A stretch of DNA of 63,612 bases, the filler included, from Actinomycetota bacterium (GTDB lineage: Bacteria; Actinomycetota; Acidimicrobiia; Spongiisociales; UBA4744), in assembly GCA_013152275.1 (NCBI GenBank). It is 5 parts of 5 records of this genome, joined end to end, with 100 filler letters (N's around TTAATTAATTAA, not from the genome) between each part and the next. Parts side by side here need not be neighbours in the genome. Positions count along the whole stretch, not along the records: positions 50,106 to 55,032 come from JAADGS010000048.1; positions 55,133 to 60,032 come from JAADGS010000051.1; 3 more parts are not named here. One strand, given 5' to 3'. Below are positions 54,001 to 57,000 of this stretch, in pieces (the stretch's first letter is position 1; every line of letters begins with the position of its first letter). The position numbers were made by a program.

Positions 54001-57000
54001 TTCGAATCGTGTAGCTCGCTTCGAGAGGTTCTTGGGGAACCTCACCCAGGTCTTGTGAGGCAGGCTCGATGACGATACGCGGGGAGCTGGTGGCGCAACC
54101 GGAGAACAAAACGACAACCAGCACGATGAGGACTATGAGCCCCATTCTCCATGCCCACGGTGAAGGATTTCTGGTGGTCACTTGTCTGTCACACGCCAGG
54201 AATTAGCCGGTCTGATCAGCAATGATAGCTGGAACGAATCGGCTCTCGGTCGGCGGCCGGTGCCGGTCTGCGACCGGATGCGTCCGCGCCGCAGTGCCGT
54301 GGATCGCGCGATGCGCGGCCGCATCGAGACATCACAGACCGTGTGAGCCGTCCCTCTCAGTAGTCGAACGGCTCCAGGGCTCCGTCGGTCTTGATCAGCA
54401 TCACCGGCAGGGACTCCCAGGTCGAGGTGTCGCCACCCATGCCGGGAGAATCCGACGGCATGCCCGGTAGCGCCAGTCCGATCGCGTCGGGCTTCGTTTC
54501 GAGGAGTCGCAGGATCGCGCCGGCAGGCACGTGCCCCTCGATGACATAGCCGTCCACCACGGCGGTGTGGCACGAATGCGCCTCCTCCGGGATGCCGCTC
54601 GAGAGTTTGAATGATTCGATTTGCTCGTCGACCTGCACGTCGAGGTCTGCTCCGAGATCTTGTAGGTACCCGACCCACTCTGTGCAGCATCCTCAGCCGG
54701 GGGGTACGTGGATTTCCATGGCCACGCCGGTCAGATCCAGGCTGCGAGCCGTTCCGGCGGCCGTGGCCGTGGTGGGAGCGGTGGTCGTAGTGGTGGTGGT
54801 CGCGGCCCCGCCGCAGGCTGCCACCAGCAGCGCCAAGGTTACGAACACGGCGAAATGCTTCACGGTCATCCCTCCGTTTTGGTTGCCGTAATGTAGCAAG
54901 AGGCCTTATGTCGCCAAAACCGAGCCACGTCTTTTCTTTCCCCTCGCCTCGGGTGCTTCCCCTGCTCGGAAGGTTATCTACCCCATCGGCCTCGGCCAAA
55001 GCCCCGAGGCCACTTCACCTGCTAGGGGAAGCNNNNNNNNNNNNNNNNNNNNNNNNNNNNNNNNNNNNNNNNNNNNTTAATTAATTAANNNNNNNNNNNN
55101 NNNNNNNNNNNNNNNNNNNNNNNNNNNNNNNNCCGCTGGTGGTGTAGGTGTGGCCGAGTTTGGTGGTCCAGTGGTGGTCGCCGTCGGGGAGGGGCTGGTA
55201 GGTCCATCCGGCGTCGTGTCGGATGCGGTGGTCGTGGCGGCAAAGGGGGACGAGGTTGGTGATGGTGGTGGGGCCGCCGTCGGCGTACGGTGTGCGATGG
55301 TCGAGGTCGCAGCTCGCGGCGGGCATGCGGCATCCGGGGAAGACGCAGGTCGGGTTGCGGGCTTCGGCGAGTCTGCGTTGGCCGGTGGTGGGTCGCCGGC
55401 GTGTGGTGCCCTGGTAGGTGGGCTGTCCGGTATCGGGGTCGGTGACGGTGAAGTGCCATTGGCCGGCTTGTTGTTGTTCGGTGACGTGTCGGGCGATGTC
55501 GGCGATGACTGGCCCGTAGCCGGCCAGCTCGCCGGGGTGATCGGCGAGATTCGTCAGGGTTTGGAGGTCGACGTGGATTTCGACGGCGCCTGTGGTCTTG
55601 GTGGCGTAGCCGGGTGTGCCTTCGAGGAGGTCCAGGAAGACGTCGGCGCGCAGTTGGTCCATGGTGCGGGACTCGCCGGCGGTCTTGAGGCTGCGGGCGA
55701 GTTGATTGATCTTCGCGGCTGCGGCGGTGACCCGATCGGGGGCGAGGTCGAGGCCGAGGAGGTGAGCGGTGCCCGATTCGGTCGGTTCTGCGATGAGGCG
55801 CCGTTCGTCGATTGCTCGCCGGTACCGTTGCTGCGCATCGTCGGGGTCGATATCGATACAGAGCCTGCGGATCCGTGCTGCGAGCTGCCCGGACGTGAGG
55901 TGAGACGCATCCGCCATCACCCGGTCGGTGACATCGCGGGCGAGACCGATCGGCAGATGTTCGGTCCCGAAGCTGATGGTCTTGGCGCGACGCAGGTCGA
56001 TATCCCCGCCGGCAAGGCGATCCCAGACTCGGGGGAGACGCTGTCTCAGGACGAAAGCGAACGCAAGCTCCGAGTCGGCGGCCCGTCGGGTCAACCGCAA
56101 CGCGACCCGGATCTCGGCCGCCGCGGACTCTATCGCCAACGGGTCGTCGGGGTCGCCCATCGCGTCGGCGACGGCAGCCATGTCCTCGTAGGTGTGGGCC
56201 TGGTAGTGCGACGCCATCCGCCGATGGGCCCGCAGCACCACGATACGGTCATATCCTGACAGCTTCCCGACATCGATCGTCGACAGGAACGCAGCCAACA
56301 CCGGACCCGGCTCCATCTCATCGAGCCGGCGAGGAATCGGTTCAACCTTGCCATCGAACATATGTTCGATCATACACGGCTACACCGACAAAAACTACCC
56401 CCGAAAACTCGCATGTCGAGCTGCCATCCGGCTCGTCCCGTCATGCCGGCCGAGAGCCCGGCCATGGTCGCGGACGCACTCGGAGACACGAGCACGATGA
56501 CCGCCCCTCGAACATCGACGAAGAGACCGATCGGTGCCGCTTTCGGTGGGTGACGGGCGCGTGTTCGCCCGCGATTCACCGGCACGAAATGCAATACTTG
56601 GTGTCCTACGCAAGTGGAAGGAGACAGACATGGCCGAGCACCTTGTCGGAACCGTGAGCCACTACTACGACAAGCTGGGAGTTGTGGGCATCGAGCTGTC
56701 CAGCGAACTCAGGGTTGGCGATACGATCCACATCCTCGGGCACATCTCGGACTTCACCCAGACCGTCGACTCCATGCAGATCGAGCATGAGGCGGTTGAT
56801 GCGGCGAAGGCGGGAGACCCCATCGGCGTCAAAGTGAACGAACGGGCACGTGTCGGCGACCAGGTTTTCGTGGTCACGCCCGACTGATCGAAGCCGTGGG
56901 ATCACGTGCATGTCTCGCGGGCTGTGCGGTAAATCGAAGGGCTTTTGACCCTCTCAGGGCACAGACGTCCATTGATCGGGACGGGGTCGCAGGCGGAAGG

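Follow-up and report, generated by a model that had tools for sequence, protein, structure and literature searches.

The DUF411 (CopG) gene on contig C45 raises the question of whether a TGA codon inside its reading frame is a stop or a codon for selenocysteine (Sec), and what the full-length product would do. The gene was analyzed within a window of 63,612 nucleotides, which is the whole stretch of DNA under study, and the positions given without a contig name count along this window. The features of the locus are listed in Table 1.

Gene Structure and Authenticity of the TGA Codon

On the minus strand of contig C45 (4927 bases), a single frame runs from the GTG at 54863 to the TGA at 54357, and its sole internal TGA is at 54695-54693. 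The earlier note had described one 168-codon gene with TGA as codon 57, and this frame bears it out. The codon sits in the context PPG*GCCTEW. The 93-aa gene call downstream of it is a genuine ORF at 54357-54638, which matches the database protein P0004. No promoter or terminator was found in a scan for them. The contig end (54950-55032) holds a short repeat of very high read depth, which recurs at the ends of many contigs in this genome.

Table 1. Features of the CopG locus in the window.
Feature	Position	Strand	Remark
CopG/DUF411 gene, 168 codons and stop, single TGA read through	54357..54863	minus	
GGAGG ribosome-binding site, 7 nt ahead of the GTG start	54871..54875	minus	from sequence; predicted function
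Signal peptide ending in lipobox LVAA-C17, followed by Thr-rich tether	54813..54863	minus	sequence motif; predicted lipidation
TGA in frame at codon 57, predicted to encode selenocysteine, opening U-G-C-C	54693..54695	minus	
U57-G58-C59-C60, predicted metal/redox motif (CxCC of CopG)	54684..54695	minus	C13/C15/C16 invariant in alignment A1
SECIS-like hairpin GUGGGU-CGGGU-ACCUAC, loop starting 20 nt past the UGA	54662..54678	minus	predicted SelB binding
S97-C98-H99 conserved motif	54567..54575	minus	C54/H55 invariant in alignment A1
E109-G110-H111 conserved motif	54531..54539	minus	G66/H67 invariant in alignment A1
G-M135...G-M142, M-x6-M pair of CopG/CutG	54438..54464	minus	M91/M98 invariant in alignment A1; motif in PMC8456105

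The TGA codon is real, and the DNA around it stands out as a conserved island. Public sequencing data of hydrothermal vent metagenomes (three runs, one study) gave contigs that span the codon, with no alternative letter listed at 54693-54695. Furthermore, a relative of about 90% identity showed 42 differences overall and none within 54649-54705. An assembly error at codon 57 is excluded by these contigs and by the conserved segment of the relative. Contigs of other organisms aligned solely over 54649-54701.

Protein Motifs, Export and Fold

The protein matched the PF04214 (DUF411) profile with 87.6 bits against a gathering score of 27 (E 4.5e-25). In the match to PDB 6WIS (E 6.7e-23), the TGA was aligned with the first Cys of NCGCC. 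The AF2 model of the mature domain, with U modelled as C, had a pLDDT of 95, and Foldseek placed it closest to P. aeruginosa CopG (6WIS/6WJE, TM 0.82-0.84). Glutaredoxins and thioredoxins ranked next, with weak matches (E >= 7e-3). The CxCC motif and the two Met of CopG are represented by U-G-C-C and M135-x6-M142, a set that is complete only when the TGA is decoded. Among 164 TGA genes, CC was retained in all 164, GH-P together with GM..GM in 160, and S/A/T-C-H-T/S in 143.

By motif, an export signal is present, consisting of a hydrophobic N-terminus with a lipobox. The product had previously been called lipoprotein-type. This description fits the form of the host's own class, in which 31/35 TGA genes had a lipobox-like motif, and does not extend to Gemmatimonadota (3/12) or Methylomirabilota (0/19).

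Selenocysteine Machinery

In the genome, selA, selB, and selD exceeded their cut-offs, and selD itself carries a TGA. No tRNA-Sec passed the cut-off in the assembly (G000), and a relaxed ARAGORN run on the genome gave only noise. The absence had been ascribed to a gap between contigs C87 and C5. This explanation is supported by a genome of the same genus (G002), which has a syntenic tRNA that scores as tRNA-Sec. When this locus is mapped onto the assembly, one end falls on the terminal bases of C87 and the other on those of C5.

Three further genes with an in-frame TGA, which are FdhA-, AhpD-, and OsmC-like by sequence reading, were followed by G-loop hairpins at 18-26 nt. Together with SelD, these other in-frame TGAs lie at C9:34725(+), C30:14739(-), C90:8334(-), and C87:10256(+), each with a G-loop hairpin, and the family model confirmed SelD only. 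A de novo search of the genome for selenoproteins gave noisy output, in which the CopG gene did not appear.

The co-occurrence of selA with the TGA form, which the earlier note had counted as support, is uninformative because selA is found in 80-89% of the genomes regardless. Specifically, selA was present in 12/12 TGA genomes of Gemmatimonadota against a base rate of 200/251 (80%), in 28/29 of the own order against 208/251 (83%), and in 17/23 of Methylomirabilota against 108/121 (89%). A selA match was absent from 6/23 Methylomirabilota TGA genomes, which is above the base rate of 13/121. All seven TGA genomes without a selA match carried selB (three, each at a contig start), tRNA-Sec (two), or a TGA-containing selD (five). 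When the two unpublished genomes among them were left aside, another Sec marker was found in 5/5.

Distribution of the TGA Form

In the own class, Acidimicrobiia, one TGA was found in 12/12 near-full matches (301 genomes searched). In the own order, 30/251 genomes had a match, with TGA in 31/32 near-full matches, and the TGA lay 112 codons ahead of the stop wherever the frame was complete. In Gemmatimonadota, where 189/251 genomes matched, TGA occurred in 12 among the 150 matches listed (56 further matches lay beyond the listing); in 12/12 of these TGA genes it stood at the codon of the first Cys of CopG. In Methylomirabilota, 26/121 genomes matched and TGA was present in 23/27 matches spanning the motif (21/25 without two unpublished genomes), with 20/21 fetched loci verified. 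Many uncultured bacteria share the TGA form, and it predominates among the CopG genes of the own order and of Methylomirabilota. Of the taxa for which TGA homologues had been claimed, Acidimicrobiia and Gemmatimonadota were verified, and Methylomirabilota is added here. In 300 genomes of Actinomycetota outside the own class, five CopG matches were found, none with a stop codon.

The metagenome DNA pattern Y-K-x-P-x-TGA-G-C-C-x-x-W gave at least 120 loci, and 120/120 scored on the CopG family profile. Among the closed metagenome frames, 68/71 ran for 111-117 codons and 3/71 stopped early. The best 120 database matches comprised 40 full-length proteins with CxCC and 80 without the motif. Of the latter, 60 were 104 aa long, which reproduces the count given before, and these pieces use codon +8, a GTG, as their start. 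None of the best 120 showed U, which is possibly not displayed by the tools used.

The contig scan used peptide patterns that favoured Cys forms (79 Cys and 1 TGA among 80), and the resulting 'other' Cys control is therefore not a random sample. The fragment L027 and the unparsed L329 were left out, as were metagenome duplicates, short rows, and contig-end rows (120 to 114 to 109). The tallies take in the unpublished genomes G016, G378, G417, G477, G1039, G1068, G1111, G265, G573, and G730, and no conclusion hinges on these. Both Cys and TGA copies of CopG were seen in G1075 (C94, C200) and G1118 (C8, C10), and two TGA copies each in G249, G621, and G626.

The Hairpin Downstream of the TGA

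The consensus bacterial SECIS has a loop of 3-9 nt with G in its two leading positions, a stem of 4-16 bp, and a spacing of 16-37 nt (PMC13188914). The CopG hairpin agrees with these rules as given there, with the loop CGGGU of 5 nt, a stem of 6 bp, and a spacing of 20 nt. The evidence for the hairpin is selective constraint rather than folding energy. Alone, it folds at -6.6 kcal/mol (z -1.5), short of the model threshold of -7.5. Windows of 50-60 nt fold at -11.9 to -19.1, not beyond shuffles (z -1.0 for the 60-nt window), and comparable hairpins follow 11-17% of random TGAs. Moreover, covariation in 46 distinct rows was not significant (179/500 shuffles).

At the codon level, all six stem pairs were formed in 123/175 TGA genes versus 11/103 Cys genes, related genes not being independent. 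Within an equal WVx[HY]L peptide context, the counts were 117/129 TGA versus 11/45 Cys genes. Residue +8 was Gly or Val, giving G-G/U in the loop, in 108/175 TGA genes, 4/103 Cys genes, and 1/40 Cys-form database relatives. The rare CTA codon at +10 occurred 42 times in TGA genes versus 0 in Cys genes. In the 26 TGA genes of the own class, 2/40 four-fold degenerate sites were invariant, only those at +7 and +8 in the loop, and Leu +10 was encoded by CTA or CTG only, both of which pair.

The metagenome pattern excludes the hairpin region, so the metagenome loci served as a held-out set, and the full stem was found in 66/109 of them. Against synonymous shuffles, the hairpin window of these loci had a mean z of -1.14 and the control window -0.14. 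Within the own class, the synonymous-shuffle z amounted to only -0.24; for Methylomirabilota, the test window reached -1.18 with the control window nearly as low (-1.03). The earlier note had reported, from RNAalifold, no common SECIS structure; this has to be revised, for a shared SECIS-like hairpin is seen in codon-level conservation.

The full stem in this register was absent from 52/175 TGA genes. Nine own-order TGA genes without the common hairpin (L158-L165, L179) share a GGUC-loop hairpin about 48 nt past the TGA, in which L158 has one A-U in place of G-C. It is possibly a second SECIS type. In Gemmatimonadota, a single TGA gene, L177:3028, lacks the common hairpin; it has a divergent helix (WIERQ) and could carry a different SECIS type or be a decaying gene.

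Decoding of the TGA Codon

The CopG gene almost certainly codes for Sec at codon 57. In favour of Sec in place of the first CxCC cysteine are the many independent TGA/Cys pairs, the conserved frame length, the Sec machinery, and the conserved hairpin. On the comparative data, SelB with Sec-tRNA would bind the hairpin 20 nt downstream and recode UGA57.

UGA can also be decoded as Cys, for example when selenium is scarce or through a UGA tRNA that inserts Cys. In that case the product would be an ordinary CopG, and Cys does function at this site in most bacteria. However, no tRNA with a TCA anticodon was found among the 52 called at default stringency, the tRNA of G002 scores as tRNA-Sec, and the hairpin has SECIS geometry, all of which makes such decoding very improbable here. 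Slightly less probable still is a pseudogene, in which TGC/TGT became TGA as a nonsense change, or a working piece of 104 aa whose translation restarts at the downstream GTG. One base change is enough to turn TGY into TGA, the early ends in the closed metagenome frames would suit decay, and the databases contain pieces of 93-104 aa. Against this, the same codon is always TGA in well over 150 distinct genes of at least three phyla, the frame length is constant with motifs conserved on both sides, and 10 silent versus 6 replacement codons separate the gene from that of G002. Moreover, neither the CxCC site nor the export signal would be present in a restarted piece. As for an alternative code with TGA as Trp or Gly, its chance is negligible and nothing was found in its favour. 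It is refuted by stop usage, RF2, and tRNA-Trp: the genome is not recoded, because TGA is the main stop, ending 3094/4303 long ORFs, RF2 exceeds its cut-off, and the sole tRNA-Trp reads CCA. In addition, Cys is invariant at the position with which the TGA aligns.

Probable Switching between Cys and Sec

A quick tree with the U/C column masked (122 columns, 63/118 branches open), which omits half of the Cys proteins from the database and two thirds of the rows in the 'other' Cys set, required 10 Cys-Sec changes, of which at least 3 were forced by strong branches. The Sec genes of the own class and those of Gemmatimonadota were placed apart. The Cys gene L120 and the Sec gene L170, in which the hairpin is present, were nearly identical and were sisters with 98% support. 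The Cys genes L138:1531 and L029:5091 were nested in Sec genes, kept Gly/Val at +8, and came from genomes with selA; they are probable recent reversions from Sec to Cys.

Several origins of Sec at the first Cys of CopG are likely from the sequences, and Sec may have arisen there on more than one occasion or have switched back and forth. On average, 4.6 of the 6 hairpin pairs are already present in Cys genes, and a SECIS is therefore a few changes away. The switching would have been aided by the W-V-x-H/Y-L codons, since these supply most of the hairpin from the outset.

Possible Function of Sec-CopG

CopG is a periplasmic thioredoxin-like protein that binds four coppers through CxCC and two Met, and Cu(I) oxidation or copper transfer was proposed as its role (PMC7558416, PMC8456105). 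CutG of R. capsulatus plays a minor part in Cu tolerance (PMC8456105). From its motifs, Sec-CopG is predicted to be exported, lipid-anchored at Cys17, and kept outside the membrane by the Thr-rich tether. The thioredoxin-like domain, in which all invariant CopG residues are kept, most likely binds a small copper cluster via U57/C59/C60 and two Met. By homology, the protein may buffer or oxidise Cu(I) at the cell surface, and the selenolate may act as a more reactive, oxidation-resistant copper ligand. Given Sec at codon 57, a copper role is highly probable.

The main rival is a mainly extracytoplasmic thiol-disulfide oxidoreductase of the U-x-x-C type with U57/C60 as the redox pair at the helix start; it is compatible with the copper reading and does not exclude it. 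U-G-C-C also reads U-x-x-C, which in the 2026 catalogue (PMC13188914) is more common than any other motif, the second-tier fold matches are those to glutaredoxins and thioredoxins mentioned above, the majority of TGA genes are without a copper neighbour, and the gene lies upstream of redox genes that include a DsbD-like membrane protein. However, C59, C98-H99, H111, and both Met are kept, which would be superfluous for a plain dithiol enzyme, GH-P with GM..GM is retained as described, and CusF, CusB/CusA-like, multicopper oxidase, or MerR genes adjoin some TGA genes. A mainly thiol-disulfide role is unlikely.

Metal-related neighbours were found at 1/34 and 7/63 TGA loci (8/97) versus 15/47 Cys loci, a comparison confounded by taxon, the Cys loci being mostly from Pseudomonadota. 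The CopG gene itself has no cop/cus neighbour on its contig; such linkage is typical and not defining for the family. Four Cu-type ATPase matches exceeded the cut-off in the genome, and no match to a multicopper oxidase was found in it. The TGA CopG genes L328, L249, and L326 adjoin a MerB-like or MerR-family gene, a hint at metals other than copper.

The downstream redox run (50277-54181, minus strand) encodes a DUF1573 protein, a CCG-domain protein, an FAD oxidase, a 4Fe-4S protein, and a fusion of a CxxC protein with a membrane domain like that of DsbD. It was syntenic solely in G002. The DUF1573 protein is a Cys form with a weak match to the selenoprotein OS_HP2, and the Cys CopG gene L032 likewise adjoins a DUF1573 gene.

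Taken as a whole, an intact Sec-CopG that is recoded through the hairpin, exported, and likely to bind a copper cluster is the best explanation and a probable one. A more specific proposal is tentative, with slightly less than even chances: Sec-CopG would hold a multi-copper cluster with a selenolate as natural ligand, and Cys would have been exchanged for Sec at this one ligand several times independently, as the W-V-x-H/Y-L codons pre-form the SECIS.

Comparison with Known Systems and Significance

Sec-CopG is similar to P. aeruginosa CopG (PF04214; 6WIS/6WJE) and R. capsulatus CutG in fold (TM 0.83), the CxCC position, SCH, EGH, M-x6-M, and the export signal. It differs from them in that the first Cys is a TGA followed by a SECIS-like hairpin, and in being a predicted lipoprotein with a Thr-rich tether in a monoderm-type host, usually outside a cop/cus cluster. 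It shares the Sec-first motif in a thioredoxin-like fold and, putatively, the coding-region SECIS with the U-x-x-C thioredoxin-fold selenoproteins (Trx, Grx, DsbA-like, SaoT, TsoX) presented in PMC13188914. However, it has extra CopG-family ligands (Cys, His, and Met), and the NCBIfam models of those proteins do not match it.

The metal-handling selenoproteins listed in PMC13188914 include P1B-ATPase (UxxC), CopZ-like 2Fe-2S (GxUC/CU), SO_0444 Cu/Zn efflux (UxC), MerT-like, SaoL, and MbdU proteins. They likewise have Sec for a metal-binding Cys, and a copper-linked selenoprotein is therefore not unprecedented. Their families are unrelated to CopG, and none is described with a multi-copper cluster in the sections of PMC13188914 covered here.

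DUF411/CopG is absent from Table 1 (119 families) and from sections 5, 7 (parts 1 and 2), and 8 of that 2026 catalogue (PMC13188914), through whose table the families of Haft and Tolstoy 2025 were also covered. A term search of the main texts of PMC13326102, PMC9312934, PMC12013277, and bioRxiv 2022.07.06.499078 did not find it, nor did a search of the supplements of PMC12013277 and PMC2398784, with the BSepDB family list (Table S2) outside the search. NCBIfam of June 2026 has no selenoprotein model for DUF411, and no model in it matches the protein. Among the papers listed by a literature search, none linked DUF411 or the copper protein CopG to Sec. Within this scope, the claim that the family is unlisted agrees with our results. 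The Sec-CopG family appears to be new, and copper-related selenoproteins as a class are already known.

More than 110 selenoprotein families are already listed, some of them copper-related, and new ones are added regularly. Sec-CopG adds a family to the bacterial selenoproteome which is now mis-annotated as a fragment of 93-104 aa without the active site. Whether CopG serves as a copper oxidoreductase, a chaperone, or a backup buffer is still debated. Where a protein contains Sec, this is usually its reactive residue. In CopG, Sec singles out the first Cys and provides natural Cys/Sec pairs for testing. Furthermore, the family shows how a SECIS can emerge within a coding region by one or two codon changes. 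If the selenolate copper cluster is true, this widespread, uncatalogued family would offer matched Cys/Sec pairs that probe the task of the first Cys of CopG and the contribution of selenium at a copper site.
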